From assembly GCA_964408485.1 (NCBI GenBank), contig CAYOZJ010000002.1, forward strand, positions 5,235 through 69,234: a stretch of DNA of 64,000 nucleotides, given 5' to 3'. Every line of letters begins with the position of its first letter. Positions within the stretch are counted from its first letter, which is position 1. This document shows, piece by piece, positions 30,146 to 51,017 of this stretch. The translations under genes were made by a program, and so were the position numbers. This stretch comes from an uncultured Gammaproteobacteria bacterium (GTDB lineage Bacteria; Patescibacteriota; Microgenomatia; Levybacterales; UBA12049). A model generated the notes under the pieces. It ran no database searches and was not told where the DNA came from. It worked only from the letters and a program-made list of their open reading frames with translations.

Positions 30146-32284
30146 TTAGAAACACTTTCCTTTCTCAGCATGCCAGGGACCGTCCCAATTATTGCCTGCC
30201 GAGCGATAGAGACTTACTGCTGCTTTTACGTTGTTGGTTGGATTTTTCATAAAATTTGCGCAGCTATTTTCAAGGGATTGGTTTGCAATTTTGCATATAC
30301 CAGAACTATAACTAATGTTTTGGGCACACGACCTGGATACTAGGTCTCCATGTGCTAAAAGATTTATTTGAAATAAACCCACACTATAGTCTTTTGTCCC
30401 GCCTCGCAGACATGCACTATTAATAATTCCCGGATCTCCGCCGCTTTCGTGTTTGCAGATGCAACTTGCTACTGTTCCTTCTTTCTGTCCGCCAAAAAAT
30501 GGAGCAAGCGCTGTTGGACTACAGGAGCCTGATGCAAGCACAGGTTGACCTACTCGTACCGCACCAGTCGTATTAGCAGTTGTGGATTGATTTAGCCCAG
30601 GCGGTCCGCTCCCAAGTGCGTAGGCTGCAGTGATTTGGTTGTGAAGAATAATATCTTTTTCAGTGGGCGTTAGTGTTACATTAAATTCCCAGTGCTTATT
30701 AGATGCCGTTGAGTTAGGTAGGGGGGTATTTGCATCAAGATTCCAAGTAATGGAGTTGCCAGTCAACACGTGTTGTCCTGTAATACTATTTGCAACAATA
30801 GTGGCAGTCGTGGGAATTTGATCCGTTATAACCAACGAGTACTGGCCTGTGTAGTTAATATCAATGAGATATTTAATATTTTGTCCATTTAAATACGTTG
30901 TTTTGCCAGACGGGTCAGTAGTAAGGGTGAGAGTGAGCCCGGGAATTGGCGCAGTTCCTCCAGAGGGAGGGGGCGTATTAGAGAGAAGGATAATAATAAA
31001 TGCAGCAGCAAGTATAAGACCTAAGATTATTACAACTGCAACGAGAATAATGATAATGCCCAAAAGTACCTCTGGATCAATACCAAGCAGTAGAGCTAAT
31101 CCCTCAAAGCCACCTTGTCTTGCTGCAGCTCCTGCCACTAGCTCCTCTCCTTTTCTTGTTGTGTTTGCCAACTTTCTTCCTTCTCTTCCAGCATTTCTCA
31201 CTGCGTTGCCTGCTTGATTGACGAGTTGTCCTGTGCGACCATTTTGTTTTTGTTGTGTCGAACCCTGAAAGCTTCTTTGGGGAATTGCTTCCGGCTGCTG
31301 TTGAGAATAGTTTGCATGCTCAATTGCCGTATGAACGGTGTCTTCATACCCTTCATCAATTGTTGTGTTGTACGAAAAACCATACCTACCAAATTGTCTT
31401 ACTGCATCGTCGAGTGCAACTGATTGCCATTGATTGTCAAACGCCGTTCCAAGTCGTTGTAGTGCTAAGGAACGCATTGCGTCTGTCTGATCTGCATTTT
31501 GCGGTTGACCCCGAAGTGCTGCTTTTATGCTCTCGGCATTATATTGTTCTGTTTTTCGTTGGTTAAGAAGTTCTTGTGATTGATTACGTAATGCTTCGTC
31601 TGAAAGTGCCATGTTTTGGGTTTGCAGAAGCGGTGCAAGACGCGCATTGCCCTGTTTGCTTAGCTCGTCCAATTGTTGGGTAAGATCTTTTTTGTCTGCA
31701 TACAAGGATTGCGCTTGTGCCTGAAGTATTTTGTATTGATTTCCTAAAATTCCCGCAGCACTTAAATGAGTTCGGTAGAAATTTTCAATTGCGTCAGGAA
31801 GATCCTTCTCCGAGGTTGTGTCGAGAAGATGCTTAAAAGCATTAATCGTAGCAATTTTTTGCGTTTGCTTCAGTTTTTCGCTAGCTATATCTTTTGGATC
31901 CGGTCTACTGCTTCCGCCACCGTGATTTTCGGACTTTTTGGGAAGAATGCTCGCAAGCGTAGATGTTTGAGGTGGAGGAGTTTCTTGATTTGATACGGGT
32001 CCTGAAGTAGTAGGTGCGCTAAGGGGCTTACCCCATGCTAAAGCTTCTTCGAAAGTATTCTTTTCATCTCTTTCTAAGGAAAAAGGGTGCTCTTTGCCGT
32101 ATTCTTCAGCATACGCATGAATAAGCTCTCGGGCTAAGCGAGGAAAATTTTCATTATCATTAAGTCTTGCTGCTTGGCGTAATTCCTGAAGTCGGTCAAA
32201 AAGCTCTCGATTTCCCGCCCGTGCAGTTCGATCGAGAAATGCATAAAAACCATCCCACGTATTTGGAGCGTGATCATTGTCCAT
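30146..32284 (-). CDS. large bitopic protein with C-terminal VirB1/IagB-type lytic transglycosylase (SLT) domain
   Basis: 712 aa. A roughly 400-aa cytoplasmic N-domain without a P-loop, one TM (LGIIIILVAVVIILGLILAAAFIIIL) and an extracellular repeat region. The C-terminus carries CKHESGGDPGIINSA...GTKDYSVGLFQINLL, which matches the ES…DYGLMQIN signature of VirB1/IagB lytic transglycosylases. Confidence 0.6.
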   Translation of the reverse strand: MDNDHAPNTWDGFYAFLDRTARAGNRELFDRLQELRQAARLNDNENFPRLARELIHAYAEEYGKEHPFSLERDEKNTFEEALAWGKPLSAPTTSGPVSNQETPPPQTSTLASILPKKSENHGGGSSRPDPKDIASEKLKQTQKIATINAFKHLLDTTSEKDLPDAIENFYRTHLSAAGILGNQYKILQAQAQSLYADKKDLTQQLDELSKQGNARLAPLLQTQNMALSDEALRNQSQELLNQRKTEQYNAESIKAALRGQPQNADQTDAMRSLALQRLGTAFDNQWQSVALDDAVRQFGRYGFSYNTTIDEGYEDTVHTAIEHANYSQQQPEAIPQRSFQGSTQQKQNGRTGQLVNQAGNAVRNAGREGRKLANTTRKGEELVAGAAARQGGFEGLALLLGIDPEVLLGIIIILVAVVIILGLILAAAFIIILLSNTPPPSGGTAPIPGLTLTLTTDPSGKTTYLNGQNIKYLIDINYTGQYSLVITDQIPTTATIVANSITGQHVLTGNSITWNLDANTPLPNSTASNKHWEFNVTLTPTEKDIILHNQITAAYALGSGPPGLNQSTTANTTGAVRVGQPVLASGSCSPTALAPFFGGQKEGTVASCICKHESGGDPGIINSACLRGGTKDYSVGLFQINLLAHGDLVSRSCAQNISYSSGICKIANQSLENSCANFMKNPTNNVKAAVSLYRSAGNNWDGPWHAEKGKCF

Positions 32285-32287: not shown

Positions 32288-34078
32288 CTATTTTGCGCTC
32301 TGTCCGGTCTCTGTTGGTGACAAGCTGGCATGCTGGTTTTGCATTTTTTGAAGTTCTTCTGGATCTGAGGTAATAATATTATGCTCAAAAGGTGCAGCAA
32401 CAATTTGAATGGCAACGTGATTCTGTCCTGCAAAGAAGAGTCCTTGGCCAACACCGGATGAGAGAAGCATTTGTCTTTCGCCATCAGATAGATAGAATGT
32501 TTTCGCGACCGTGTCAATTTCTGAGGTACTCTGCTTTAAAAGAATCTGTATAGAGCTGTTAGAAAGAATTGCGCGACCATAATCACTTGAAAGGAAATCT
32601 TGTACGTCTTGAGTCGCTGTAGTGAGTCCTAGATAGTATTTACGAGCCCTTTTGGCAATGCTGTACATAAAGGATGCAGAATCTTCATGTTTCATTAAGT
32701 ACCATGCCTCATCAACAATAAGTAAGCGTTTTTTTAAAGATTTTCTGACACGAGTCCACACAAAGTCTAAGAGAATATGCATTGCAATGGGTCTAAGTTC
32801 GTCTTCCAAGTCCCGAAGAGAAAAAATCGTGAGAGGATTTGTGATATTGAAATTCGATTGTTGGTTAAAAATGCCAGAAAGACTGCCGGTGACAAATTTT
32901 TCCAAACGGAGGGCAATGTTTTGTGCTATTGGATCCTGTGTTTTTACTAATCTCTGATACAAATCCTGCAAAATAGGAGGCGTTTTTGTCTGGCTTGCCG
33001 GATCTGCAGTAATTCCCTTATCTGCATATGTTTCAACAAGTGCTCTGTCCAAAATTGCATCTTCAGCAGGATTAACTGCACCAAGCATGATTTTTAAAAG
33101 TGCTCGGATAGAAAGGATCTTAAGTCCTAATTCGTTTTCTCCTTCTTCATAGACTCCTGATAAGTCAAATGGATTAATTCTCACAGGACTTGTTGCTGAG
33201 AAATTCAAATATTCTCCCCCTAAGCTCTCTGCGAGCTTGCCGTATTCACTTTCAGGATCAACAACAATAACTTCTGTCCCAAACATAAATTGGCGCATGA
33301 TTTCAAGCTTAATGCTAAAGGATTTACCTGATCCTGATTTTCCAAAAACAACTTCGTTAGCATTCTCTAAAGAGTATCTGTCAAAAATAATAAGTGAGCC
33401 ATTTTGTTGATTTACGCCGTACAAAATGCCTTTGTCTTGCGTTAAGGTAGCAGAGGTAAAAGGAAATGTCGATGCGAGACTAGATGTGTCCATGTTGCGT
33501 GTAATCGACAATTTGTCTTGTCCAATCGGTAGCGTTGTTTTAAATCCCTCCTCCATCTGAAGCGTTGCTGGTTTTGCTGTTACTAAAAGAGAGGAGAGCG
33601 TGCTGGTCAATTTTTTAGTTGCTTGTTCTAGTTCTGCGCTGTCTGTTGATGAGAGGGCAATGTAAAGACTAAATTGAAAAAACCGTTCTATTCCTTTTGC
33701 CAATTCTGCCTGGAGTCCAAGGGCGTCAGAAAGTGCTGCTGCAACTTTGGGATTTTCTGGTTTCCCTTTTTCTTCATCGCTTGACATTGTTGCTTCCATC
33801 TCGGCGATTTTGCGCTTTAAATTAGACAACACATCATCAGTAAAAATTGGATAGACAAACATACTAATTGCTAGAGAGTGATCAAAATCAATAACAGGGG
33901 ATAGCCACCCGACTGATACATATCGAGGGTAGCCAGAAACAAAAAATGTTCTGTAGAAATGATTACCGACACGAATCGTCTTAAAGTCTACCTCAACTTT
34001 TGTTGGGGCAATAGCATCTGCTGCATTGCCGGCTCCCTCAATAGATACTTCTTTAGATTTTTTAGTAAAAAGCGCCAT
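32288..34078 (-). CDS. virB4: VirB4/TrbE/CagE-family type IV secretion ATPase
   Basis: 596 aa. Walker A VFGKSGSGKSF, Walker B LLIVDEAWYLM, and the GLTTATQDVQDFL motif. Short, Gram-positive-like length. Confidence 0.85.
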   Translation of the reverse strand: MALFTKKSKEVSIEGAGNAADAIAPTKVEVDFKTIRVGNHFYRTFFVSGYPRYVSVGWLSPVIDFDHSLAISMFVYPIFTDDVLSNLKRKIAEMEATMSSDEEKGKPENPKVAAALSDALGLQAELAKGIERFFQFSLYIALSSTDSAELEQATKKLTSTLSSLLVTAKPATLQMEEGFKTTLPIGQDKLSITRNMDTSSLASTFPFTSATLTQDKGILYGVNQQNGSLIIFDRYSLENANEVVFGKSGSGKSFSIKLEIMRQFMFGTEVIVVDPESEYGKLAESLGGEYLNFSATSPVRINPFDLSGVYEEGENELGLKILSIRALLKIMLGAVNPAEDAILDRALVETYADKGITADPASQTKTPPILQDLYQRLVKTQDPIAQNIALRLEKFVTGSLSGIFNQQSNFNITNPLTIFSLRDLEDELRPIAMHILLDFVWTRVRKSLKKRLLIVDEAWYLMKHEDSASFMYSIAKRARKYYLGLTTATQDVQDFLSSDYGRAILSNSSIQILLKQSTSEIDTVAKTFYLSDGERQMLLSSGVGQGLFFAGQNHVAIQIVAAPFEHNIITSDPEELQKMQNQHASLSPTETGQSAK

Positions 34079-34080: not shown

Positions 34081-34671
34081 TTATTCGCTATATACATCAT
34101 GAAAAAGTTTTACCAATTCTGCTCCTGTAATAATCCGTGCACGAAGATTCATTCGGTCGATTTGAGAGAGAAGGCTTTCTGCTTTTGTCTTGAGTCCTGC
34201 ATGCGCCCTGATGAAGAAGTCATCAAGATTATCACTTCCCATTTTTGCAACTCCACCAATACCTTCTTCTAGAAGGGAGTAAGAAATAACAAAAAAGAAT
34301 TGTTTATCTAGGACTGTTGTTGATGTAACTAAGTCTTTAACAAACGATTGATATTGAAGAATGTCTTGGGAAAGCTTAGGGTTATTGGCTTTTTGGGAAG
34401 CAATGCCTAAGGAGTCGATATATGGGAGAATATTGACTTGTTTGCTACGCATGACAATTTGTACAGGGAAAGAAAGAGAATTAAGAAGTCCTGCGTAACC
34501 ATATACTTTCGCGTCCTGTTCCTCGCTTGATAAAAGGGCAAAATTTACTGCCTGGAGCTCGATAAGTAGGCAGGCATTGCCTCCTTTCATCAAAACAGTA
34601 TCCTCTCGAATGTCCAGGACTTCGGTAAAGGATTGCGTTGATTTTGCGTGATGTTGGGCAGCTTGTTTCAT
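34081..34671 (-). CDS. hypothetical cytoplasmic protein, co-transcribed upstream of virB4 (2-nt gap)
   Basis: About 197 aa from the internal Met; no motif. Could be a separately encoded VirB4 N-terminal or accessory domain (inference). Confidence 0.35.
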   Translation of the reverse strand: MKQAAQHHAKSTQSFTEVLDIREDTVLMKGGNACLLIELQAVNFALLSSEEQDAKVYGYAGLLNSLSFPVQIVMRSKQVNILPYIDSLGIASQKANNPKLSQDILQYQSFVKDLVTSTTVLDKQFFFVISYSLLEEGIGGVAKMGSDNLDDFFIRAHAGLKTKAESLLSQIDRMNLRARIITGAELVKLFHDVYSE

Positions 34672-34672
34672 A

Positions 34673-35848
34673 TTATCCAAAGAGCTCTTTGCGCAAATCT
34701 TCCCGTGCGTCAATTGAGATAACCTCAAGTGGTTGGAGAATGTCTCCAATTGCTTGGAGTTCTATTGTGTCAAAGCGCTGTTTGCTGTTAGGGTCTTCGA
34801 AGGTAAGCGTGTATGTGCCGTTGATAACAGGCGTTGCGGAAGCAAATTGTCCTAATGGATTTGTTTTAAAAGCTCGTACTGGATTTTCATCTTTATCTTT
34901 TACTTCAATTAAAATATTTGGTAGCACATTACCTCTAGGGTCTTTAACAACGCCGCAAATAAGATTGGGAGTATCGCTGACAAAAGGAGCACCTACTATT
35001 TTTGATTGCCCTGGTGCTACTTGCCTTACGTTTTCAGTAATCTTTGGCGTAGGAGCGCTAGACGGCGTAAATACCTGTTGGGGCTTTTGCGATAGCTGCT
35101 TTTGGAGCTCAAGTAGTTTTGTCTCAAGTTCTTGTTTTTGGGCACGAATTGATTGAAGCTGAGATTCTAAGTCGCCCACTTTTTCATGGGCCTCTTCGGC
35201 TTCTTTTTGGTCATGCGCCGCTCCTTCTTGTTGTTTTGCTGCAGCAATTTCTTTTGCCAAATCCACCGCCTCTTTACTTAGCTCTTGCTGATTTGTTTCT
35301 TCGTTTGTTGTGTTGCTTTGCGCGGAAACTGGGGCAATGGGCGTGCTTGCAAGTTGTATGGTAGGTATCTCTTGAGGTTTTTGCTCTTCAAAAAGCTTCT
35401 GGAAGGAAGTGCTGTCAACAGGCGTTACTAGTTGCACTTTTTCTTCCTTTTCTTCTCTCTTTTCCTCTTTTTTTTCCGGTTGATTGTCTACTGTTGTGGT
35501 TGGGGTAGGTGCATCATCAGATGATTTATACGTATATTGTGTTGGCGAGAAAACAGCCTTAAAGAAGTAAAAGATCATGCTGTCTGCTGGTCGTCCAGCA
35601 AGTGGGATAAAAGCCAAAATAACCCCAGAACCTGCAAAAAAAACAATAAGCGGCAGTTTTATGAGAATAAAAACAGGAAGAGACAGACTTATCCATGCCA
35701 ATACAACACCTGCGGCAAGGTAAGCAAATTGCTTAATGGTCATATCGCCAATTAAGCGAAATTGAAATCCTGTAACATCTTGTGGAATAGGATGATTATC
35801 CATATAAAAAAGTGTATGACGTGAAAAATCCCATTGCAACCCTTTCAA
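34673..35848 (-). CDS. T4SS-associated bitopic membrane protein: VirB3-like TM hairpin, coiled coil, and C-terminal β-sandwich domain
   Basis: 391 aa. N-terminal PIPQDVTGFQFRLIGDMT followed by two TM helices gives a VirB3/TrbD-like topology. A Glu/Lys/Gln-rich coiled coil follows. The C-terminus resembles a carboxypeptidase-regulatory-like β-sandwich (GVVKDPRGNVLPNILIEVKD...NGTYTLTFE). Confidence 0.35.
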   Translation of the reverse strand: MKGLQWDFSRHTLFYMDNHPIPQDVTGFQFRLIGDMTIKQFAYLAAGVVLAWISLSLPVFILIKLPLIVFFAGSGVILAFIPLAGRPADSMIFYFFKAVFSPTQYTYKSSDDAPTPTTTVDNQPEKKEEKREEKEEKVQLVTPVDSTSFQKLFEEQKPQEIPTIQLASTPIAPVSAQSNTTNEETNQQELSKEAVDLAKEIAAAKQQEGAAHDQKEAEEAHEKVGDLESQLQSIRAQKQELETKLLELQKQLSQKPQQVFTPSSAPTPKITENVRQVAPGQSKIVGAPFVSDTPNLICGVVKDPRGNVLPNILIEVKDKDENPVRAFKTNPLGQFASATPVINGTYTLTFEDPNSKQRFDTIELQAIGDILQPLEVISIDAREDLRKELFG

Positions 35849-35912: not shown

Positions 35913-36569
35913 ATGCCACTTTCTCTTTTTGTTGGGATCCTTATTATTCTTTTTTTACTCTCCCGCCGGGTTACCCGCTTGCTCTCGCATTTATTTGTTC
36001 GTCTTTTCCGCAGTCAGCACGCAGCGATCTATGCATTGTCTTTTATTTTTCTTCCTGGGGTTGTTTTGCATGAACTGTCACATTTGCTTTTGGCAAATAT
36101 TCTTTTTGTTCCAACAGGAGAGGTCGAATTTTTTCCAGAGATTCAAGGGGATCAAGTAAAAATGGGAAGTGTTGCTATTGCTCGCACAGACCCTTTACGA
36201 AGATTTCTTGTTGGTGTTGCACCGGTTATTGGAGGATTGGGTATTATTCTTTTAGCATCAACATATCTTTTTACCACACTTCTTTCTTGGCAAAGTTTAG
36301 TACTTTTTTACATAATTTTTGAAATAGCAAATACAATGTTTTCCAGCAGTAAAGACATGGAGGGAGCAGTAGGACTTCTTATTGGTCTTGCAGCGCTGAG
36401 TATTTTGCTACAATTTCTTGGTCTGCCATTATGGCAAGTGGTGATTCAGTTTCTGGGGAATGAATTCGTAAACAGCATTCTTATTAGAATGAATTTATTT
36501 TTGCTTTTAGCGCTGGGGCTTGACGTCTTTCTCGTGCTTCTTTTTGAAGGAATTGCCAGACTAAAGTAA
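35913..36569 (+). CDS. membrane-embedded HExxH zinc-metallopeptidase-like protein (DUF3267-like)
   Basis: 218 aa, 5-6 TM. HELSH lies within the GVVLHELSHLLLANI helix. It is the only plus-strand gene inside the minus-strand T4SS-like cluster, and it is adjacent to the pilin genes. Confidence 0.4.
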   Translation: MPLSLFVGILIILFLLSRRVTRLLSHLFVRLFRSQHAAIYALSFIFLPGVVLHELSHLLLANILFVPTGEVEFFPEIQGDQVKMGSVAIARTDPLRRFLVGVAPVIGGLGIILLASTYLFTTLLSWQSLVLFYIIFEIANTMFSSSKDMEGAVGLLIGLAALSILLQFLGLPLWQVVIQFLGNEFVNSILIRMNLFLLLALGLDVFLVLLFEGIARLK

Positions 36570-36890
36570 CTACTGACATGTTCCAAATCCAAACGAAAGA
36601 ATGCACGTGACTCCTGTAATGCCCGCAACAAGACCGATAATAAAAAATGAAAGAAGGACAATGATGAGACCGATAATGGCATAGGTGACAATATTTTTTG
36701 CTTCTTCAACGCCCTTGCCTCCACCGGAGGTTATATATTTAATGCTTGCAAAAAGAAGCATAAAAAGAGAAGCAAGCCCCACAAGATAAATAGCCGCACC
36801 TACTCCAATTCGGTATAGCGGAATAATGCAGGAAAGTGTTGGAATACCATTTACTACGCAGTCTTGACCATTAACAATCCATGAACTCAT
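36570..36890 (-). CDS. VirB2/TrbC-like pilin candidate (paralog 1 of 4)
   Basis: 106 aa with two hydrophobic helices flanking the ASIKYITSGGGKGVEEAKNIVTYAIIGLII core. Conserved with the other three paralogs. Confidence 0.5.
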   Translation of the reverse strand: MSSWIVNGQDCVVNGIPTLSCIIPLYRIGVGAAIYLVGLASLFMLLFASIKYITSGGGKGVEEAKNIVTYAIIGLIIVLLSFFIIGLVAGITGVTCILSFGFGTCQ

Positions 36891-36931
36891 ATATGTAGCC
36901 TATCAGAGAGAAAATAAGAAAACAAGAGAAG

Positions 36932-37327
36932 TTACCTTGTTAATGTAGGGAGCGTAAGATTAAATAGACTTACACCAACAAACAAGTTAAGAACAAAGTT
37001 GACGATGAGATAAGAAAGAAAAATAATAACAAGGCCAACAACAGCTGCCACTATTGTTTCGCGTGCTTTGTTAACGCCTTCTTTTTCTCCTTGAGACGTA
37101 AGCCACTTGACGCCGCCAAGAATCAAGAAAACTAATGCCAGCATGGCGGCAACAACAAAAACAAAATTAATTGCATTACCGATTACTTTATTTAAATCAG
37201 AGGCTCCAAGACAAAGAGCGCTAAAGTTACCAGGGGGACATGCATTAATGTTAACATCTGCAAATGCAATAGGAGCAAGAAATGCAGAAAGACTGAGCGT
37301 GCCGATTGAGGCAAATAATTTCTTCAT
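36932..37327 (-). CDS. VirB2/TrbC-like pilin candidate (paralog 2; Sec signal peptide)
   Basis: 131 aa. Signal peptide ...APIAFA|DV. Core LILGGVKWLTSQGEKEGVNKARETIVAAVVGLVIIFLSYLIV. Confidence 0.55.
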   Translation of the reverse strand: MKKLFASIGTLSLSAFLAPIAFADVNINACPPGNFSALCLGASDLNKVIGNAINFVFVVAAMLALVFLILGGVKWLTSQGEKEGVNKARETIVAAVVGLVIIFLSYLIVNFVLNLFVGVSLFNLTLPTLTR

Positions 37328-37367
37328 TGACTCTATCGTAGAAACAATTCTTTATCTTGTCAAGTCG

Positions 37368-37706
37368 CTAGTTGCCAAGAAGATGTACGCCAAACGTGAA
37401 ACCAATGAAGTTAATAATAAAAAATGACAAAAGAGCGAGAATAAGGCCGACAATCGCATATTGGATTGTTTTTTGTGCACCCTCCAACTGCTTTTTGTCT
37501 CCTTGAGACGTAATCCATTTTATTCCCCCAAACATAATAAAGAAAAATGAAAGTAAGATTACTGCAACAAATATGCTAATAATGACAAAAGAAACAATGC
37601 TTTGGATCGAGTTATTGTTCATGAGATTGCGTATTTGATTGGGAACGAGCACAGGATAGGTTGCTGGTTCATCTGGGTTGCCAATAACAAGAGCAAGATA
37701 CCTCAT
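37368..37706 (-). CDS. VirB2/TrbC-like pilin candidate (paralog 3)
   Basis: Start at the internal Met (37706). Core IMFGGIKWITSQGDKKQLEGAQKTIQYAIVGLILALLSFFII. Confidence 0.5.
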   Translation of the reverse strand: MRYLALVIGNPDEPATYPVLVPNQIRNLMNNNSIQSIVSFVIISIFVAVILLSFFFIMFGGIKWITSQGDKKQLEGAQKTIQYAIVGLILALLSFFIINFIGFTFGVHLLGN

Positions 37707-37707
37707 A

Positions 37708-38355
37708 TTATTTCCTAAAACCTGGAATTTGGAGAATATCAACGCCAATAAATTGCAAGATAACCACAGAGAAGATGATAAATATTAACCCAACAATTGC
37801 AGCAGTTAGTCTTTCCCTTGCTTCTTTTACTTTTTCAGGATTACCCTGTGACGTAATCATTTGGTATCCTGCAGCAATAACAAGAAGAATCGCAACCCCC
37901 CCGGAAAGTCCAAGAAGAATACCAAAGGTGCTTTTTACGAATCCCGCAACGGTTGTTTGAATGGGTCCAAAAGCAGTATCAACGCTTGCACATGTTCCAT
38001 TGGCATAGGTTTTGCATGGCGGAGCTAAGTATGGTGATGGTGAAGGGGGAATGGGTTTATTTTTATCTTTTGGCTCACAGCAATAGCCCGAACCCAAGAA
38101 GCCGCATTTTGGAACACATGGGCCAGTATCCCACAGGAATAAGCCACACCTACTACTTGTTCCATATTTGTATGAAGCATTAGGGGCTCCGTTAATAGTG
38201 CAGTTGTCACCCGGTTTTGGATTAGAAGCATTGGCATCTTGCGGCTGAGCGTTGCAATAGTTTGGATAATTACAGTCAGCCTGTACGTTTCCTAATGTGG
38301 CAAGGGTTAGGCAGAAGAAAACAAAGATAAAGACTCCTATTTTGAAGAATTTCAT
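37708..38355 (-). CDS. Cys-rich ectodomain fused to a VirB2/TrbC-like pilin module (paralog 4)
   Basis: Signal peptide MKFFKIGVFIFVFFCLTLATLGNVQA. A roughly 110-aa domain carries about 12 Cys (DCNYPNYCN...CGFLGSGYCCEP...). The C-terminus reads GYQMITSQGNPEKVKEARERLTAAIVGLIFIIFSVVIL. Confidence 0.5.
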   Translation of the reverse strand: MKFFKIGVFIFVFFCLTLATLGNVQADCNYPNYCNAQPQDANASNPKPGDNCTINGAPNASYKYGTSSRCGLFLWDTGPCVPKCGFLGSGYCCEPKDKNKPIPPSPSPYLAPPCKTYANGTCASVDTAFGPIQTTVAGFVKSTFGILLGLSGGVAILLVIAAGYQMITSQGNPEKVKEARERLTAAIVGLIFIIFSVVILQFIGVDILQIPGFRK

Positions 38356-38396
38356 ATATCTATCGTCCCACATGCTATCTTTGATTGTCAAGAAAA

Positions 38397-39764
38397 TTAT
38401 TGCTCGAATCGTATCCCTCTGCCTTTAACAGTGAGAATATGGATAGGTTTTGTGGGATCCTCTTCAATTTTCTTTCGAAGACGTAAGATGAGTTGGTCAA
38501 GTGCTTGCTCACTTACTCCAGATTGTGTTTTTGTGTCTGACCAAACAGTAGTAATAATTGTTTCTCGGTCAACAATGGTTCCTTGTTGTTTGAGAAGAAG
38601 TCGAAGTAAGCGAAACTCAGAAAACGTAAGCGTATCGGAGATAGGTTGTTCATCCTGATTGATTGTATTTGTTGATTCATCAAGCACAATTTTTGTAGAT
38701 ATATGTTTTGTGCTTTCTGTTTTTACATATTGTGCAAAAAGAGGAATGGTAATTTTTTGATTGTGAATAAGTCCAACGCTTTGAAGGAATTCGCTGGGGA
38801 GAGGGCAGTTGCCATTCTTGCAAAGCATGAGCATATCTTGTCTCTCATCTGGCGTTAGGAAGAGCCACAATTCCTTCAGTACTCCTTGGATGCCCTTTGT
38901 TCTGAGAAGAGATTTTTCAGTAGCACCGGCAAGAAGCGCTTCAAGCCCAAGCTTAGTGAGTTTGCCATGCCAGCCGGTAAGTGCAAGAAGCTTTTCAATG
39001 TATGACTCTGGTAATTTTTTCCCTGCAAGTTTTTCTAAGTAACGTAGGCGAAAGTCAAACCCAATGCGATCTTCAAGCTGTAGATAGATTGTGTTGTCCA
39101 CAACAAATTCATAAAAATCAGAAAAGATTTCTGGTTCAAGCATATCCTCCAGAGGACGTGTCGATGAGAAGACAATGGAAAAGGCATATTTTGCTCTGCT
39201 GCGAATGCTTCGCAAATTGTTAAAAAATTCTTCACTTGCCTGAGGGACAAAGGTTTCAAACCGGTCAAATAAAAAAATAATATGTAATTTTTTCTCAAGA
39301 GTTAGGTAATCAAATGCATCTTTAAGCTTCTGAAACAAAACCAACTCATCGTTATACGAAAGTGCTTCCTTAAAAAGCTTGTCTACCATTAAAAACTCTT
39401 CTTCTTTGCGTCTCTCATGCAGGCTAGATGCAAGCTCAAGAAAGAAGAATTTCATTATGTCAAAAAGAGACCTGTTTTTGATTTCTGAGAAATGAATTAA
39501 AACAAAATGATAGACCTCCTGCTTTGCCTCTCCTACATGGTGAATTCGTATATTTCTGTTATACGTTAATAAATTCAAGACAAAATTTCTTCCGGCTCCA
39601 GGCAGCGAGATAAGCTGAAGAGATTTACCAGCGTTAATTGCAGAAAAGATTTCTCCGATTTCTTTCTCGCGGGTAGTTGCCGGATAAAGAGATTCTAAGC
39701 GCTCCGCTTCATAATTGACTATTGAAGAGTGATTATTGACAATTGACCTGGATTTATTTTTCAT
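38397..39764 (-). CDS. transcriptional regulator, C-terminal OmpR/PhoB-type wHTH with N-terminal degenerate P-loop-like domain. Sits immediately upstream of the pilin genes on the same strand.
   Basis: 455 aa. The C-terminus (FSEFRLLRLLLKQQGTIVDRETIITTVWSD...ALDQLILRLRKKI...ILTVKGRGIRF) is a trans_reg_C wHTH. The N-terminal SLQLISLPGAGRNFVLNLL is paralogous to 12763..14064. Confidence 0.5.
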   Translation of the reverse strand: MKNKSRSIVNNHSSIVNYEAERLESLYPATTREKEIGEIFSAINAGKSLQLISLPGAGRNFVLNLLTYNRNIRIHHVGEAKQEVYHFVLIHFSEIKNRSLFDIMKFFFLELASSLHERRKEEEFLMVDKLFKEALSYNDELVLFQKLKDAFDYLTLEKKLHIIFLFDRFETFVPQASEEFFNNLRSIRSRAKYAFSIVFSSTRPLEDMLEPEIFSDFYEFVVDNTIYLQLEDRIGFDFRLRYLEKLAGKKLPESYIEKLLALTGWHGKLTKLGLEALLAGATEKSLLRTKGIQGVLKELWLFLTPDERQDMLMLCKNGNCPLPSEFLQSVGLIHNQKITIPLFAQYVKTESTKHISTKIVLDESTNTINQDEQPISDTLTFSEFRLLRLLLKQQGTIVDRETIITTVWSDTKTQSGVSEQALDQLILRLRKKIEEDPTKPIHILTVKGRGIRFEQ

Positions 39765-40262: not shown

Positions 40263-43200
40263 ATGAGTAATGCAGAATTGACACCAACTGGAGGAAGCAG
40301 GTACGATGGATATATGAGTGCAGGTACATCAACAGCCACAGCAGAAAGACCATCATCCTACCAAAGCGATGTAGCCCCAGCGCCGGTAAGTGAAGCAACA
40401 GCATCGCTTAAGGCAAATGCAGACACTGGGAGAGAAACTGGTGTGGAGCCTATTTCTGCTAAAACAGATGCGCTGCCGGAATTGACAGAAAGAGTAAACA
40501 AAGAGGGAAGAAGAAATCTTACCAGTAATGAGCTAATAAAAGTTGCAAATACTGTCCAAGGAAAGGCTTCGGCAGGAGATGTGATGGCTGATGCCGATTT
40601 TGTGTCGAATGCAGCAAAAATTCTTATTTATAATATTGAGTCTGATGTTGCAAATCACAATACAAATCAAGTCATGCTTGCAGAGTTTAAAGCCAACAAG
40701 ATTCCTGAGGCAGCAAAAGAGCTTGCAGAGGCAATAACAGTAATTAAAGCAAACGGTCAGCTAACGGAAAATGAAGATACAGGTGACAGATGGGAGAGAA
40801 TTAAACAGCAAGCGGGCCGTATTGCTGATTTGGCAAAGACGATCTCTTCGTATTATGAAAGAGCAAAACTTTCCAGAGAATATGACGATCCATTTAGGCA
40901 GGTTGTCTCATTTGAAGAATTGATGACCAGATTTAATATTACGCTTGATGATGATCGCTTTAAGTCGGGTGGGGACTTTTCTCTTATCGACATTAATGAA
41001 TATGAAGATCAATTTGGACGGCAAATGTCCGATGAAACAGCACATCCAGAAAATTTCTACCGCTGGGTTATGGAGCGGGCAGAGTTTTACCATGACTTTG
41101 ATCCCATGGCGCCGGTTGATCTTTTTCAAGGAATGTACATCGTAGCAGGCTCAAGAAAAATTCCTATGTATGAAATGTTAGTTGATTTTAATTCATACTT
41201 TGCTCACCGGGTAAAAACAAAAGGAGAGTTAAAGGTTTTGGAATCAGATTTGGATCGTGCAGAAAAAGCAGGAACATATGAGTCAATGGCAGTAATAGAA
41301 GGGGGGAGAGAGGTCTTAAAAACGGATCCTTATGATCAGAAAGCGCTTGGTCGTTACAAAAATGTTGAGATTATTGATGAGGAAACGGGTGAGAAGAAGA
41401 CTGTAGATGTATATGTTAGTCCAGTTCCTGAAGAAGATCAGGAAAGGCATGTACGAGTTTTGCCAGTGTATTACTACAACGATAAAGGTAAGCTTATGCC
41501 AGTGCGAGAATGGTTGCAAAGTAAAGAACAGTGGGACACAATTCCGCCAAAAGATCCAAGAGCAAAAGAATTTGAAAATGCGCAGGAAGAAATTATGTAT
41601 CAGCTATGGCTTCAGACAAAAAGTCATAATGCAGACGTGAATTATCGACAAAAGGGTATGCCAAGTGAGACTCCATTAAAAGACGTTATGGCAGAAATTT
41701 ACAGTGATAATATTTGGACACGTACGCATCGAAGAATTGCTGGCATTTTAGACATGCCTGCCTCAACGTATAGAGGTGACGTAGATGAAAATGGCAAGCC
41801 CATTAACGAAGCTGCAATGAAGTGGAAAGGCAAAGATATAGGACAAGGAACTTTGGGAAAAGCATTCCAGAGGTCTTTAGCTGCGTATTATCATATTGCA
41901 GAAGCAAATGCAGAGTATAACAAATACAATACTGAAGGATTTAATCCCTTTTTTAACATATTAGAAAGACGGGCAAATGAGGGAAAAGGAGAACTTGAAG
42001 TAAATGGAGGAGAGATTTTTTACAAAGCACTTATTGGGAGACTTCTTACAAATAAAGATGATACTCAATTCGATGAAGGGAACTTAAGCTATAGATTCGA
42101 TAAAAAACATCCAGAAAGTAGTTTTGTAGAGGCTGAATTTTTGGCAGAAATTAATAATATTCGCGTCCCAATAAAAGACGGTACAACGCGAGCGAGATTT
42201 GCTTGGGAAAAAGCAGAATTGGCAGATTTGCTTATGCATAATCGCGCAGATTTTTTGACCACCTCAAACGAGGGAAGAAGTAGGTCTATAACGTCAGGAG
42301 CTCTCGCAGAAGTGGAAAGAATAATACGTGAAAGATACGCAGAAAAAAGAGATGAAAACGGAAATGTTATTCAGGTAGCAAATAGAGAAAGGTTGCAACA
42401 ATTACAAATATTTCTTGACTCATTTAATAAGTCAAATAATTCAGATCAAAGAAGAGGAGATTTTCTTGATATGGTGAAAAAAAGGGTTAGACCAGGTAGT
42501 AGTGAGAGTGATGTTGATGCGTATAATAGGACAGAAAAAGCTTTCAGGGACGATGCTTCGCTAAAAAACCTTTCAGGTTTTGCTGTTGCCATGTTTGTTA
42601 GGTCATTTGATGGAAATAAGGATTTTACTGCCGGTATTAATCCGTATGAGAATATTCGCTATTCCTTAGATGCAAGAGAATTAATGCGAGGCGCAATGCG
42701 CGATACAATTTCCTACACAGAAAAGTTAGACGATCATGATGCATTGTGGGCAGAGGAATGGGCATATACCTTCACATTCCATACTGGCATTTCAGCAAGA
42801 AATGATATGCAGGGAATTGGGCATGATGCATGGTCGAAAGTAATCAATACAGAATTTTACCGTTTGCGTCAGTCTGGCGGTGGTAATTATTTGGGGAATA
42901 AAGATAATTTATATGGTATTCATCGGCTTGGGACTGACTTTTGGCAAGGATTAAAGGTGCGAGAGAAAGGATCAAATGAATACGGGAAAAATTTGTATGA
43001 AATTCTTGTTGGTTTAGAAAATGTAACGGATTCAAAAGGGAACGTAATAGGTCATAGAATGAATCTAAATAAAGATGTGAAAAAATTTGAATTTGCAGGA
43101 AATGCAATGCGCCAATTCTATGCGGATCATGTAAGTCATGCTGTTGATATGTTTATTGATATTACTCAAAAGCAGGAATTTAACCTGGATAAATTACTGC

Positions 43201-43838
43201 ATAGAGATCAATTGGGACGAATGACATGGAATAATGAAGAAATGCAGAAAATGATTGATTCAACATGGAAACATATGCGATATGGTTTTGATAATAATGG
43301 ATTTTTGTATGACAATACTGTCTACGGGTGGCTGTATGACGAGACTATTAATGCTCATGGTCAAGTATCACGAAAGCCTCACTTTGGCTTTATGACACTT
43401 CGGGAGTCTATGTTTAGTAAAAAAGTACGTGAAATGGGAATGTATAACAGGCATGATGTGTCGGGTTGGGCTGCAAATCAATACAAATCAAAAATGGGAC
43501 GTAATGTTTTTGCATACCTTATTGCAGCGCAGCTTCGCGAGCATACACGAATGGCAGGGGGGTATAAACTTTATTCTGCAGAAGATGTTGAACACATTGC
43601 TCATGCATTCATGGAGTATGCCGCTCGTGTGATGCAGGGACAAGATGGTGAGGCGATTGTGCTATCTGGATTCTTTACGCCAGAGGAAATGATGAAGATC
43701 TTGGTAACAGGCCACGCAATTCTCTGGGCGCTCTGGATGCGTGAATATAGAGATGCATTCACAGGAGGATTCTTGTTTGGTTTTTTTGAAGCATTAGGCC
43801 TTGTCATGAAACAAGCAGGGGCAGGAATAAAGTTTTAA
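40263..43838 (+). CDS. very large hypothetical protein (1191 aa), no P-loop, no TM, no signal peptide
   Basis: Long uninterrupted ORF with typical codon usage; no family motif recognised. Embedded in the T4SS-like locus and convergent with the VirB6-like gene. Confidence 0.5.
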   Translation: MSNAELTPTGGSRYDGYMSAGTSTATAERPSSYQSDVAPAPVSEATASLKANADTGRETGVEPISAKTDALPELTERVNKEGRRNLTSNELIKVANTVQGKASAGDVMADADFVSNAAKILIYNIESDVANHNTNQVMLAEFKANKIPEAAKELAEAITVIKANGQLTENEDTGDRWERIKQQAGRIADLAKTISSYYERAKLSREYDDPFRQVVSFEELMTRFNITLDDDRFKSGGDFSLIDINEYEDQFGRQMSDETAHPENFYRWVMERAEFYHDFDPMAPVDLFQGMYIVAGSRKIPMYEMLVDFNSYFAHRVKTKGELKVLESDLDRAEKAGTYESMAVIEGGREVLKTDPYDQKALGRYKNVEIIDEETGEKKTVDVYVSPVPEEDQERHVRVLPVYYYNDKGKLMPVREWLQSKEQWDTIPPKDPRAKEFENAQEEIMYQLWLQTKSHNADVNYRQKGMPSETPLKDVMAEIYSDNIWTRTHRRIAGILDMPASTYRGDVDENGKPINEAAMKWKGKDIGQGTLGKAFQRSLAAYYHIAEANAEYNKYNTEGFNPFFNILERRANEGKGELEVNGGEIFYKALIGRLLTNKDDTQFDEGNLSYRFDKKHPESSFVEAEFLAEINNIRVPIKDGTTRARFAWEKAELADLLMHNRADFLTTSNEGRSRSITSGALAEVERIIRERYAEKRDENGNVIQVANRERLQQLQIFLDSFNKSNNSDQRRGDFLDMVKKRVRPGSSESDVDAYNRTEKAFRDDASLKNLSGFAVAMFVRSFDGNKDFTAGINPYENIRYSLDARELMRGAMRDTISYTEKLDDHDALWAEEWAYTFTFHTGISARNDMQGIGHDAWSKVINTEFYRLRQSGGGNYLGNKDNLYGIHRLGTDFWQGLKVREKGSNEYGKNLYEILVGLENVTDSKGNVIGHRMNLNKDVKKFEFAGNAMRQFYADHVSHAVDMFIDITQKQEFNLDKLLHRDQLGRMTWNNEEMQKMIDSTWKHMRYGFDNNGFLYDNTVYGWLYDETINAHGQVSRKPHFGFMTLRESMFSKKVREMGMYNRHDVSGWAANQYKSKMGRNVFAYLIAAQLREHTRMAGGYKLYSAEDVEHIAHAFMEYAARVMQGQDGEAIVLSGFFTPEEMMKILVTGHAILWALWMREYRDAFTGGFLFGFFEALGLVMKQAGAGIKF

Positions 43839-45647
43839 CTATTTATTAAGACCTGGTTCGTTTTCTCCAGCAAGTTTTCTCATCTTACCAAATGGCGTAG
43901 GGATATTCATAAACCACTTTCGCAATCCTCCTTCACTCAAGCCTCGCACAGTATCTTGATGTCTGGTAAGTCTTTTCCATGGCTGACTGACAATACTACT
44001 GTATGCTTGGGTTCCTTGAGCCAACATTTGTCCAACTCCTGGTAAGTATTTAATATCCGGAGCCTTTAGAGCGTCTTGAAGCATGGTGAGCGCTTGAGGT
44101 AGAAGCAAGATAATGCCAAACCCAATAAGCGGTCCCATAAATTGACTTACCCCATTTGGGACACCAATAAGAGGTGGAACAAAGCCTGTTTTACTTTGCA
44201 GATAGACATCTGAAATAACTCGTCCGAGTAAAATAATACCTATTGCATAGGGAAAAACAAGGCTATACGCAAGCAAGTGACGAAGCCAATTGTCAAAGTT
44301 AATAGAAGTACCGGGTAATACGCCAAGCAAAATAAAGAACGGTCCTAATATCGCATAGAGGAGGAAAAGAACATATGATTTTAAAAGCGAAAAGTACATG
44401 CGAAGAAGCGCGAAAAGAAGCGCAAAAGCAAAAATAAAGAAAGCAACAATACCAGCAATACTGGATATGCCATCAGTAAAGCCGTTTTTAATACATGATA
44501 CTAAGGGTGAATCGGCGGCATTTGTTGCGAGCTGAACAGCTCCAGCAACATGATTGCCAAAAATAAGGTTAGCAACTGCACCGAAATTGCCCAGAATTGG
44601 CTGTGCAACAGCATTTCCTATTGCTTGGGGAACCGAAGCGGGAAGAGCCAAAACCCTTAGCGGAAGAGGAAGGAAGCCGAATGCTCCCTGGCTTCCCAAT
44701 AATTGTTGAGGTGCATTACCAATTGATCCCAAAAAGCAAGGAATAATGCCAGGAAGTGCCATCCAGCCTGCATTTTGCACAAGAGCCTGAGCGAGTCCGA
44801 CATTTATGTCGTAAATTGATGCGGCAGGTTGTACAATCATTCCCAAAATGCCACCTGTATAGACAGTGTCCAGAAATGTAATAGGATTGGTAGAGATATT
44901 TGCTGTCATCAACGCAGGTTGCAGCGCTGGATCAAGTGTTGAAAAAAGATTAATAGTAATAAATGTCGCAAGCCACATAATATCGATAACAAATCCGGCA
45001 ATTGCATAAGAAAATGTTACAAGAATCAATGCGACAATAATCTTTGGAATCTGATTTTCAATTGTCATAACTGTACGTGGATCTATTTTTGCCCGAAGCA
45101 TAATCGCAAATCCCACAACAACAAAAACAATAACAAATAATAAGTATGCAACATTGCGAAATGCAAGCCAAAGCTTCATAACTGGTGCCAACTGATCAAA
45201 TCCTGTGCCTGATGCTGCATTTGCACTTTTTACTGCGCCAAAATTTCCTGCAACATAGCTGACATAATTACCAACATGGAATTGTGGCGGACTGAAAAGA
45301 AGAGCAATGCCAGAGTTGGTGAGACCGAGAAGACCTTGATTTGTTGTTGTAGCGCGAGTTAACTGTCCTGTTTTGGAATTGTACCCAAGACATCCTTGCT
45401 GAGGACTGGTGACATCTCGTCCATCGATTGCACAACTTGCAAAAGAGAGAAATCCCCACATGACGCCTTGTGCTAGATTGCTTACCGTTGGGGCAACAGT
45501 ATTGTCAAAAGAGTTTGTTGCGGTTTGAGTATTAACTGGAATTTCTTGTTGGGCATAAACCTTGGAAGGTAAAAAGGAATAGACACTAGATAGTATAAGA
45601 AGCAAAAGTACGCCAATTGCACTAAAAAACCGGGCAGAAAAATGCAT
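43839..45647 (-). CDS. polytopic membrane protein, VirB6/TrbL-like candidate
   Basis: 602 aa. Signal peptide, a roughly 120-aa extracytoplasmic N-domain, then 7 or more TM helices with Gly/Ala-rich loops. Architecture and locus context fit a VirB6-type channel component; there is no diagnostic motif. Confidence 0.35.
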   Translation of the reverse strand: MHFSARFFSAIGVLLLLILSSVYSFLPSKVYAQQEIPVNTQTATNSFDNTVAPTVSNLAQGVMWGFLSFASCAIDGRDVTSPQQGCLGYNSKTGQLTRATTTNQGLLGLTNSGIALLFSPPQFHVGNYVSYVAGNFGAVKSANAASGTGFDQLAPVMKLWLAFRNVAYLLFVIVFVVVGFAIMLRAKIDPRTVMTIENQIPKIIVALILVTFSYAIAGFVIDIMWLATFITINLFSTLDPALQPALMTANISTNPITFLDTVYTGGILGMIVQPAASIYDINVGLAQALVQNAGWMALPGIIPCFLGSIGNAPQQLLGSQGAFGFLPLPLRVLALPASVPQAIGNAVAQPILGNFGAVANLIFGNHVAGAVQLATNAADSPLVSCIKNGFTDGISSIAGIVAFFIFAFALLFALLRMYFSLLKSYVLFLLYAILGPFFILLGVLPGTSINFDNWLRHLLAYSLVFPYAIGIILLGRVISDVYLQSKTGFVPPLIGVPNGVSQFMGPLIGFGIILLLPQALTMLQDALKAPDIKYLPGVGQMLAQGTQAYSSIVSQPWKRLTRHQDTVRGLSEGGLRKWFMNIPTPFGKMRKLAGENEPGLNK

Positions 45648-45810: not shown

Positions 45811-45898
45811 CGGAGAGGACGGGATTCGAACCCGTGATGCTCTTGCGAACATACACGCTTTCCAAGCGTGCGCACTAGACCAACTATGCGACCTCTCC
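45811..45898 (-). tRNA. tRNA-Ser (anticodon GGA)
   Basis: Hand-folded. Acceptor GGAGAGG/CCTCTCC+G, anticodon arm CACGC-TTGGAAA-GCGTG, a long variable arm, T-loop TTCGAAT. No encoded CCA. Confidence 0.8.
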
Positions 45899-45908
45899 TT
45901 GTCGAAAA

Positions 45909-46337
45909 CTACATTATCTGTTTTATTTTCTGTTGTGCTTCTTGCCAGACCTTTTTGTCTCCTGTAAATGTTAATCTTTTTTCTACTTCAATTTCTGGTA
46001 GCCATTCAACCTTTTCCATTTCCCATCCATGATCTGCTACATCTCCGGACTCGTATCTCATTAGAAAATATTGAACTCGTTTGTGGCGTTTTTCCCCTTC
46101 GAAACTATACCAAAAGGCAATTGGAGACAGTTTTTCTAAAATCTTACCGGTTATTCCTGTTTCTTCCTGTACCTCTCGAATTGCTGCTTCTTCCGGTGTC
46201 TCGCCCTGAATAGTATCTCCAACATGACCTTTTGGGAAAACCCATCCATGATGTCCCGAATGCTGAGAAACAAGAATGGTCATATTGCCATTTTGTAACC
46301 AAAAAACTATTCCTCCAGCTGAAAATTCTTCTTTCAT
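45909..46337 (-). CDS. NUDIX hydrolase
   Basis: 142 aa. NUDIX box GHVGDTIQGETPEEAAIREVQEETGI. Confidence 0.8.
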   Translation of the reverse strand: MKEEFSAGGIVFWLQNGNMTILVSQHSGHHGWVFPKGHVGDTIQGETPEEAAIREVQEETGITGKILEKLSPIAFWYSFEGEKRHKRVQYFLMRYESGDVADHGWEMEKVEWLPEIEVEKRLTFTGDKKVWQEAQQKIKQIM

Positions 46338-46424
46338 TATCAGTATTCTAAAAGGTAAATATCAAGAAAATAGCCTTAATATATCCTAGAATAGCCTTGC
46401 TATTATACCGTATTTATATTTAGC

Positions 46425-48909: not shown

Positions 48910-48911
48910 TG

Positions 48912-48985
48912 CGTCCCCGGGCAGATTTGAACTGCCGATCTTCAGGTTCGGAACCTAATGCTCTATCCAACTAAGCTACGAGGAC
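48912..48985 (-). tRNA. tRNA-Arg (anticodon CCG)
   Basis: Hand-folded. Acceptor GTCCTCG/CGGGGAC+G, anticodon loop TTCCGAA, T-loop TTCAAAT. Confidence 0.75.
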
Positions 48986-48998
48986 AGATATTTGAGGG

Positions 48999-49088: not shown

Positions 49089-49093
49089 CTATG

Positions 49094-50999: not shown

Positions 51000-51017
51000 A
51001 GTGCTAGTATATCACTC

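Follow-up and report, generated by a model that had tools for sequence, protein, structure and literature searches.

Tandem arrays of VirB2-like pilin genes are known from the type IV secretion systems (T4SSs) of Patescibacteria. When 3,035 Patescibacteria genomes were searched with the Pfam families PF18895 and PF04956, such arrays were found to be particularly common in Microgenomatia and Saccharimonadia and often to lie near dnaA, and no adhesin was detected for these T4SSs (PMC12102498). In Southlakia epibionticum six pilin genes (SEML1_0014-0019, 103-185 amino acids (aa)) were shown by transposon sequencing (Tn-seq) to be essential, as was the rest of the T4SS, and the pilins, the largest of which has 185 aa, were grouped with TrbC/VirB2 and DUF4134 by structure search at TM-scores of ~0.73-0.75 (PMC10633639). 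A 2025 review regards Patescibacteria pilins as the one exception to the absence of VirB2 from monoderm T4SSs (PMC12857230), the function of the Patescibacteria T4SS has been described as completely unknown (PMC11665869), and cryo-electron tomography (cryo-ET) of Mycosynbacter has revealed a conduit 8.6 nm wide as well as lances 9 nm wide and 70 nm long, the tip of which carries a 'barb' (PMC11880426). Here we describe an array of this type, found in a window of 64,000 nucleotides (nt) of contig CAYOZJ010000002.1 (assembly GCA_964408485.1, positions 5,235 to 69,234; lineage Patescibacteriota, Microgenomatia, Levybacterales), and in particular its first gene, P4, which encodes a pilin fused to a secreted cysteine-rich head, one of many different heads carried by related pilins.

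The locus is almost certainly a chromosomal, dnaA-proximal Patescibacteria T4SS pilin array. Arrays of this kind have been defined as at least two tandem pilin genes near virB4 and other T4SS genes, and exactly such a set is found here close to dnaA, VirB4 and PrgI being encoded 2.5 kb and 0.7 kb downstream of the pilin genes, respectively, and TrbL/VirB6 5.4 kb upstream of them. The published arrays likewise consist of tandem, divergent PF18895 pilins by virB4, PrgI and VirB6 near dnaA (PMC12102498, PMC10633639), although they comprise 2-11 genes of ~25% mean identity as compared to four genes of 30-47% identity over the aligned modules in the window. No relaxase or coupling protein has been seen near the published arrays, and neither a relaxase nor a VirD4 domain was found by Pfam among the cluster proteins scanned, the scan being limited to the cluster rather than extending over the whole window. 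The closest relatives in species-representative genomes are metagenome-assembled genomes (MAGs) of Patescibacteria, Levyibacteriota, Microgenomates, Roizmanbacteria, WWE3 and Magasanikbacteria. The array as such, noticed in a preliminary description of the sequence, is not new, since tandem VirB2-like arrays of 2-11 genes have already been published (PMC12102498, PMC10633639, PMC12857230).

Paralogy and family membership of the four pilins

Four consecutive small open reading frames (ORFs) are found on the minus strand at 36570-38391, named P4, P3, P2 and P1 in order of transcription and occupying slots 1 to 4 of the array. P4 (37708..38355, 215 aa, slot 1) most likely starts at the ATG of MKFFKIG..., has ~30 full-length homologs and was modelled by AlphaFold2 with a predicted local distance difference test score (pLDDT) of 79. 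P3 (37368..37706, 112 aa, slot 2) has neither signal peptide nor cysteines, P2 (36932..37327, 131 aa, slot 3) has a predicted Sec signal peptide in residues 1-23 and a C-x9-C loop, and P1 (36570..36890, 106 aa, slot 4) has no signal peptide and carries both an N-terminal and a C-terminal C-x9-C. For P4 and P3 the longest-ORF rule gave starts that turned out to be wrong. A 227-aa form of P4 beginning at a TTG at 38391 was rejected, since this TTG belongs, as its first half, to a TTGACA hexamer which is also conserved in front of the orthologous genes, and a 126-aa TTG form of P3 was rejected since it would overlap P4. The ATG of P3 at 37706 is preceded by an AGGAAA ribosome-binding site and lies 1 nt past the P4 stop codon, and the 215-aa and 112-aa products are called identically in two public assemblies holding the same protein.

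The four genes are true VirB2-like PF18895 paralogs. All six pairs are connected by composition-corrected BLASTP at E 4e-6 to 4e-18 with 30-47% identity over the aligned modules, and in Smith-Waterman comparisons confined to the last 90 residues of each protein, whereby the membrane-helix composition is preserved, none of 1000 composition-preserving shuffles reached the observed score for any of the six pairs (z 7.7-21). Against the curated cut-off of 26.6 bits for the Pfam T4SS_pilin family PF18895, P2 (E 2.5e-10, 40.7 bits) and P4 (E 8.5e-9, 35.8 bits) score above, and P1 (E 1.4e-5, 25.5 bits) and P3 (E 9e-5, 22.9 bits) fall just under it, but the latter two are linked to P2 by BLASTP at E 5e-9 and 4e-18, respectively, and their orthologs carry precomputed PF18895 matches. 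All share two hydrophobic helices around a short charged loop ((T)S(Q/G)G...K...A), seen as hydropathy segments and, in P4, as helices of the AlphaFold2 model, and among 16 sequences from four genomes the loop motif (T)S(Q/G)G...A...A(I/V)(V/I)GL shows little or no variation.

It might be argued that this motif reflects membrane-helix bias only, and that the ORFs encode unrelated small membrane or holin-like proteins situated beside lysozyme genes. Two-helix hydrophobic proteins do draw many weak spurious Pfam matches, and genes for SLT_3 and CHAP hydrolases are indeed found nearby. The probability of this is however negligible, since the shuffles and the composition-corrected BLASTP, with E-values down to 4e-18, lead us to reject a compositional artefact, and since the residues that are invariant across the 16 modules are those of the polar loop and small residues (S, G, A, G, L) rather than just hydrophobic ones, with P2 and P4 above the PF18895 cut-off. 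The preliminary description was thus right in recognizing four VirB2/TrbC-like pilin paralogs and in taking their shared motif for real homology.

Less straightforward is the relation to canonical VirB2/TrbC/TrwL and F TraA, with which the window pilins share small size, a predicted Sec signal (P2 and P4 only), two helices, a charged loop and location in a T4SS cluster. They differ, however, in that sequence similarity is below family thresholds, in that the host is monoderm and in that four obligate paralogs take the place of one pilin; furthermore, a disulfide loop precedes helix 1 in three of these paralogs, signal peptides are absent from two, P4 carries a head of ~70 aa (~110 aa when the ectodomain is counted with linker and loop) and there is no evidence of cyclisation. 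The link is weak in three comparisons. With a curated cut-off of 27.9 bits for TrbC/VirB2 PF04956, P2 and P4 reach 18.9 bits (E 0.0018) and 16.1 bits (E 0.013) and P1 and P3 give no match; an hhalign comparison of the 16 pilin modules with five plasmid VirB2/TrbC sequences, obtained from annotated plasmids by way of a tblastn probe, yields a weak match that spans both helices, in register, over 61 columns (E 0.016, probability 2.8%); and Foldseek retrieves only generic helical hairpins for the P4 monomer, among them an archaeal conjugation pilin at E 3.4. The window pilins are consequently VirB2-like by topology and context and members of PF18895, and of the two Pfam families suggested for them beforehand membership of PF04956 is not established.

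The four paralogs also match, weakly and in the same register, the pilin-like family NF045849 (Mbov_0395) of the Mycoplasma integrative and conjugative element (ICE), at E 2.8e-9 to 1e-3 and below its 40-bit cut-off, which fits the proposed ancestry from the mating-pair formation (MPF) class MPF-FATA. The members of NF045849 are single small proteins without heads, and we know of no pilus for this family.

The head of P4 and its variable counterparts

The P4 precursor is made up of five parts, all on the minus strand. Residues 1-26 (38278..38355; MKFFKIGVFIFVFFCLTLATLGNVQA/D) form a predicted Sec signal peptide with K2/K5 in the n-region, a hydrophobic core of 17 aa and V-Q-A at positions -3 to -1; it coincides with a Kyte-Doolittle segment and is the least conserved region of the protein (28% mean identity). 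Signal peptides were here read from the sequence by the -3/-1 rule, which places cleavage at ...NVQA/DC in P4 and at ...PIAFA/DV in P2, as had been suggested for the latter, and finds none in P1 and P3. The signal peptide is followed by the head (residues 27-98, 38062..38277) with eight cysteines (C28, C34, C52, C70, C80, C84, C92 and C93), and by a Pro-rich linker (residues 99-113, 38017..38061; NKPIPPSPSPYLAPP) whose sequence and length are both variable (31% mean identity; low pLDDT). Next comes a disulfide loop or collar (residues 114-135, 37951..38016), in which C114-x7-C122 precedes TAxGxIxT and short β-strands are predicted; C114, C122, T127 and G130 are invariant, and orthologs that lack a head have the loop as well. 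The stalk, finally (residues 136-215, 37711..37950), comprises a helix, the loop SQGNPEKVKEARERL, a second helix and the tail GVDILQIPGFRK, the model helices being 136-168 and 173-206. In the AlphaFold2 model of P4 the head is small and β-rich, the loop forms a β-hairpin and the stalk two long helices.

The precursor contains 11 cysteines, one of them in the signal peptide, and thus not the approximately 12 counted initially in what was otherwise correctly described as a secreted N-terminal fusion; the mature protein has ten, eight in the head and two in the loop. All ten are invariant or nearly so, and in a subclade three sequences lack C70 and C80 jointly, as expected for a disulfide pair. 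From this paired loss, and from the retention of C114 and C122 in headless orthologs, we infer that the cysteines would be paired in disulfides. The head accordingly appears as a narrowly distributed, pilin-specific and probably disulfide-bonded extracytoplasmic domain.

The narrow distribution follows from sequence searches. Among 5.8 billion clustered proteins 99 homologs of P4 were found, of which 30 share the full-length architecture and together with P4 (P0001) align end to end at 44-63% identity. Within this 31-member family the head has a mean pairwise identity of 42%, or 33% if the cysteines are left out, as compared to 75% for the stalk. A hidden Markov model (HMM) of the head, run against 1.84 billion representatives, gave six matches, namely one spurious repeat protein, one truncated gene and four stalk-bearing proteins, two of which carry two tandem heads, and the head is hence found only fused to a P4-type stalk. 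The head alone had no Pfam, PDB or viral fold match, and nothing meaningful was obtained among solved structures when profiles of the P4 family, of the 16 pilin modules and of the HExxH protein described below were used as queries.

Other heads are found on the same type of stalk. Some 36 of the 99 homologs (118-152 aa) are headless and carry nothing but a signal peptide and the disulfide loop before the stalk, and 32 have other N-terminal regions of ~80-270 aa. An all-versus-all BLAST of 63 heads separates them into 24 unrelated classes, mostly Cys-rich, so that there are at least 23 besides that of P4. Stalks of headless proteins share up to 78% identity with that of P4 and those of proteins with other heads reach 71%, compared with 69-84% for proteins with the same head, and since the headless value lies inside the same-head range, heads must have been acquired, lost or exchanged over the time in which the stalks diverged. 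Only PF18895 was found in a Pfam scan of ten head-bearing pilins (250-662 aa).

In 46 species-representative loci pilins with 100-570 residues before the module are common and are found at the first array position, these lengths being upper bounds as the longest possible start was used. In Levyibacteriota, Magasanikbacteria and other groups, arrays of 4-9 genes open with head-bearing pilins, with one per array in the Levybacteria-like clade of the window and two to four per array in Magasanikbacteria (5-9 genes), which means that they are not confined to the window's clade. The loci L043-L053, from Magasanikbacteria and related MAGs, have 5-9 PF18895 genes, the first 2-4 of which encode N-terminal regions of 135-360 residues, and a pilin-module protein of 696 aa is encoded at 479-2569 of L051. 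The fusion first noticed in P4 is consequently real and conserved, but it is not a one-off, since ~30 relatives share the head and extended pilins are common at the first array position; very probably, the head is an exposed, variable module.

We are not aware of an earlier account of such an architecture. No description of variable heads was found in those parts of the literature that were searched, and the papers on published arrays present the pilins as small proteins and do not, in the text searched, describe heads, fixed slots, slot promoters or the HExxH protein. In a structure-clustering preprint PF18895 dominates the freshwater-specific structure clusters, and heads are unmentioned. 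Canonical VirB2 is, as had been stated, without such a fusion. A functional parallel is found in the VirB5/TraC tip subunits of T-pili and in type IV pilins with their conserved helix and variable globular head, which follow the same logic of a conserved assembly module combined with a variable exposed binding module, and the VirB5/TraC subunit is, as here, a specialised one encoded with the major pilin. There is however no sequence or fold relation to either, and the head is fused directly to a VirB2-type stalk; neither a VirB5-type nor any other adhesin family was found among P4 and the scanned neighbours, nor did the head have a PDB fold match. To our knowledge the fusion of an adhesin-like module to a VirB2-type stalk has not been described.

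Fixed slots and expression of the array

The array was compared with those of the loci L003 (GCA_035457005.1), L004 (GCA_964474445.1), L006 and L007 (GCA_009772455.1). The order of a regulator, four pilins and a convergent membrane protein of 220 aa is the same in L003, L004 and L006, with PrgI next in L003 and L004, the sequence of L006 stopping short of that position, and assemblies including GCA_035457005.1 and GCA_964474445.1 show the full order of regulator, four pilins, HExxH protein, PrgI and VirB4. For each paralog of the window the best match by far is the protein in the corresponding slot, as exemplified by P2, which matches its L004 counterpart at E 1e-68 and the remaining slots at 1e-7 to 1e-20. 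Orthologs are 43-52% identical for P3, 55-63% for P1, with all four cysteines kept, and 73-79% for P2. The slots also retain their particular traits, which are a signal peptide and the disulfide loop in slot 1, lack of cysteines and a short N-terminus M-[KR]-x-[LI]-A-L-x-[VI]-G in slot 2, a signal peptide and the C-x9-C loop in slot 3, and in slot 4 an N-terminal C-x9-C and a C-terminal Cys pair with no signal peptide. Nearly all complete loci of the window's clade have four copies, and two have five.

From these data the four paralogs are old and non-redundant, and each has a fixed slot and most likely a role of its own in one heteromeric tube or pilus. The preliminary description had left a choice between heteropolymeric and switchable subunits, the latter meaning that the paralogs are interchangeable and serve antigenic or host-range variation, as has been proposed for the VirB2 copies of Bartonella and Anaplasma, where several tandem divergent genes are likewise found in one T4SS locus. 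The paralogs are certainly diverged (30-47% identity over the aligned modules), and the possibility has been raised for Patescibacteria arrays in published discussion (PMC12102498). It is nonetheless very improbable here, since the paralogs show one-to-one orthology and fixed order across genomes, and since the signal peptides, Cys loops and tails are conserved slot by slot. Furthermore, neither invertible nor long flanking repeats nor recombination cassettes were found, the inverted repeats being short chance matches and the direct repeats a result of paralogy, so that a DNA switch mechanism was rejected, and all six Southlakia pilins are individually essential (PMC10633639). The one-to-one orthologs, fixed order and lack of invertible repeats thus favour heteromeric assembly, a set of heteropolymeric subunits being in good agreement with the data, whereas switching and copy-number variation are not supported, the copy number being almost always four.

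Two observations on individual slots may be added. The N-terminus of the slot-2 pilin (37605-37706, minus strand, and the orthologs in L003, L004 and L006) is too short for a Sec signal and is followed by a variable segment; it may be a processing site. In L007 an insertion sequence with rve integrase and HTH genes is situated at 6938-8007 inside the array, right after a head-bearing pilin of 299 aa, and this array is thereby disrupted or reduced.

Conservation is also what draws attention to the sequences in front of the pilin genes. On the minus strand a promoter-like TTGACA-17-TACGAT (37335..37363) ends 7 nt before the ATG of P2, with an element at the same place in ten related loci; in these it mostly reads TTGACAAG-N15-TACGAT, lies 8-13 nt before the ATG and is found almost nowhere else. 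Only four strict matches exist in the window, both strands included, and the P2 site is among them. A second such sequence, TTGACA-18-GACGAT (38362..38391, minus strand), ends 6 nt before the ATG of P4; it lacks the first T of the -10 hexamer (xACGAT) and is weaker than that of slot 3, but an element TTGACA(A)...xACGAT(A) is likewise found at slot 1 in L003, L004 and L010 and, in a degenerate form with CACCAT, in L006. A weak conserved promoter-like element precedes slot 4 (36897-36925, minus strand). Over the region as a whole promoter-like sites are however no more frequent than in shuffles, which counts against them, and it is only their conservation across relatives that argues for them. 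As the elements end 6-13 nt before the ATGs of slots 3, 1 and 4, they would imply leaderless or near-leaderless mRNAs, and no obvious ribosome-binding site precedes P2. Slot 2 appears to be translationally coupled to slot 1.

P2 is furthermore the most conserved protein of the neighbourhood, with 73-79% identity to its orthologs as compared to 57-60% for the regulator and 48-60% for the membrane protein. In view of this conservation, which exceeds that of the other paralogs, and of a consensus promoter of its own, P2 would seem to be the major subunit, made in excess as the main building block, with P4 and P3 as minor components. A different arrangement, in which P4 is a co-major subunit and its head decorates the whole pilus in the manner of some flagellin outer domains rather than sitting at the tip, may draw on the 75% mean identity of the P4 stalk, as expected with many packing contacts, and on the arrays that have two to four head-bearing pilins. 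In solved conjugative pili the pilin termini point toward the outside, and such outward termini could tolerate an N-terminal domain on the surface. We find this arrangement improbable, however, because P2 is more conserved than P4 and holds the consensus promoter, whereas the P4 -10 hexamer lacks its first T, and because headless orthologs at slot 1 show that assembly does not need the head.

The surrounding cluster and the role of the array

The T4SS cluster lies next to dnaA (25679-27019) and dnaN (27164-28258) on the plus strand, and has on the minus strand genes for a Big_5 protein (28260-28970), a CHAP hydrolase (28955-30136), an SLT_3 lysozyme-like protein of 712 aa (30146-32284), VirB4 (32288-34078; TraG P-loop, E 1e-31), a TrsD-like protein (34081-34749) and a PrgI/VirB3-like protein fused to a CarboxypepD_reg domain (34673-35848). 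In the last of these a Glu/Lys/Gln-rich, coiled-coil-like linker leads to the C-terminal CarboxypepD_reg β-sandwich, a layout also found in L004. Then follow, on the plus strand and convergent with the pilin array, the gene for a conserved polytopic membrane protein of 218 aa with HExxH (35913-36569), and on the minus strand the four pilins (36570-38355) and a protein of 455 aa with a C-terminal winged helix of OmpR/PhoB type (38397-39764; Trans_reg_C, E 2.2e-17). This protein is likely the regulator of the array. It has no receiver domain and no domain assignment for its N-terminal ~350 aa, lies directly upstream of the array in all relatives, is found at the same position in L003, L004, L006 and L007 and is 57-60% identical in the first three. 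Its start is overlapped by ~10 nt by a member of the 23S rRNA intervening-sequence family PF05635 (39754-40116, minus strand; E 1.7e-16), and the same pair of genes is present in L001.

Between the regulator and TrbL/VirB6 (43839-45647, minus strand) a protein of 1191 aa without Pfam match is encoded on the plus strand (40263-43838), and relatives have orthologs of 1092-1152 aa at the corresponding position. The protein may be a further component of the T4SS or of the cell surface, and a strict consensus promoter match at 40278 suggests that its true start lies after the ORF start. Seven tRNA genes (45811-51800) and a tmRNA gene (52819-53221), all on the minus strand, accord with an ordinary stretch of chromosome rather than with a mobile element.

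The membrane protein beside the pilins combines HExxH with N-x7-D-x-E-G and is syntenic with the array in relatives. Its homologs number at least 1584, nearly all of those with a named source coming from Patescibacteria MAGs, and in the 120 listed, none of which has a Pfam domain, the residues H53, E54, H57, N140, D148, E150 and G151 are kept in 119-120. The spacing of the motifs is the same as in site-2 proteases and, as in these, the HExxH and N-x7-D motifs lie in separate membrane helices. In the Levybacteria-like clade the gene and that of the last pilin converge, whereas in the Roizmanbacteria loci L034, L039 and L041 it is co-directional with a single pilin, the start of which it overlaps by 4-8 nt. 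Pfam gave no match for the window protein and Peptidase_M50 at E 0.14 for one of four orthologs, and nothing was found in a profile search against the PDB. We may speculate that the protein is a candidate intramembrane metalloprotease acting as a pilin-maturation or assembly factor.

Taken together, the data make it reasonably probable that P2 is the major subunit, and P4 a minor, initiating or tip subunit displaying a host-binding head, of a heteromeric PF18895 tube built on VirB4, VirB6 and VirB3, whereas the tip location and host binding of the head, taken for themselves, can be suggested only tentatively. Judging from what is established for VirB2-type pilins, P4 and P2 would enter the membrane via Sec, and their signal peptides would be cleaved, while P1 and P3, with N-terminal tails of ~25-35 residues and no signal peptide, would probably be inserted directly, as is possible for short tails. 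The head and both termini would then lie outside and the charged loop (...SQGNPEKVKEARERL...) in the cytoplasm. A VirB4-powered machine would pull the pilins from the membrane into the tube, of which P2 would form the bulk, and P4, coupled to P3, would act as a minor, initiating or tip subunit and touch the surface of the host with its head. P4 would in that case be the recognition or adhesion element not yet found for these systems.

Several points besides the distance to canonical VirB2 weigh against this proposal. No filament has been shown for the window organism or for any Patescibacteria T4SS, and the tip location, the disulfide bonds and the binding are things that we infer. The head is modelled with moderate confidence only (pLDDT 76 for the ectodomain, residues 27-135, alone), and in Southlakia there is only a modest extension on one pilin, so that large heads are not universal. 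As regards the disulfides, many Patescibacteria are anaerobes, no ORF with a thioredoxin-type CxxC and no disulfide-enzyme motif was found in the window, and the cysteines of P4 could instead bind metal.

It should also be considered that the PF18895 modules may be membrane-embedded channel parts or a mere two-helix anchor, which would make P4 a surface protein held in the membrane beside the T4SS, for instance one that binds the wall or host glycans. Monoderm T4SSs are generally without pili (PMC12102498, PMC10633639), and the weak similarity to canonical VirB2, the weak NF045849 matches and, more speculatively, the conserved aromatic residues Y62 and Y64 of the head, which would suit sugar binding, could all be accommodated by such a function. 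It is made rather unlikely, however, by the fact that four to nine conserved paralogs with slot-specific tails exceed what an anchor needs. Tubes of ~9 nm have been observed in a related parasite (PMC11880426), and the structural grouping of Southlakia pilins with TrbC/VirB2 and DUF4134 at TM-scores of ~0.73-0.75 (PMC10633639) is likewise in poor agreement with a mere anchor.

In width, F-type conjugative pili, at ~8.7 nm, are consistent with the proposed tube. The proposal of P4 as a tip subunit is consistent with the reports that no adhesin has been detected for these systems (PMC12102498) and that lances carry a barb (PMC11880426). One may go further and imagine head-bearing pilins in general as the host-recognition tip, that is the 'barb' of the ~9-nm lance, with exchangeable, fast-evolving heads deciding to which host an epibiont can attach or which it can penetrate, and with the HExxH protein as a dedicated intramembrane protease or assembly factor for the maturation of the signal-less pilins, but this extended picture we consider doubtful.

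The array itself is, then, a Patescibacteria T4SS pilin array of the kind already known, and what appears to be undescribed are the variable heads at its first position. The T4SS is essential for epibiotic growth in the one species of Patescibacteria tested (PMC10633639). The combination of a conserved stalk with exchangeable, rapidly evolving heads is a candidate determinant of host specificity and, if the proposal is true, hints at what the tube-with-barb structures observed by cryo-ET are made of.

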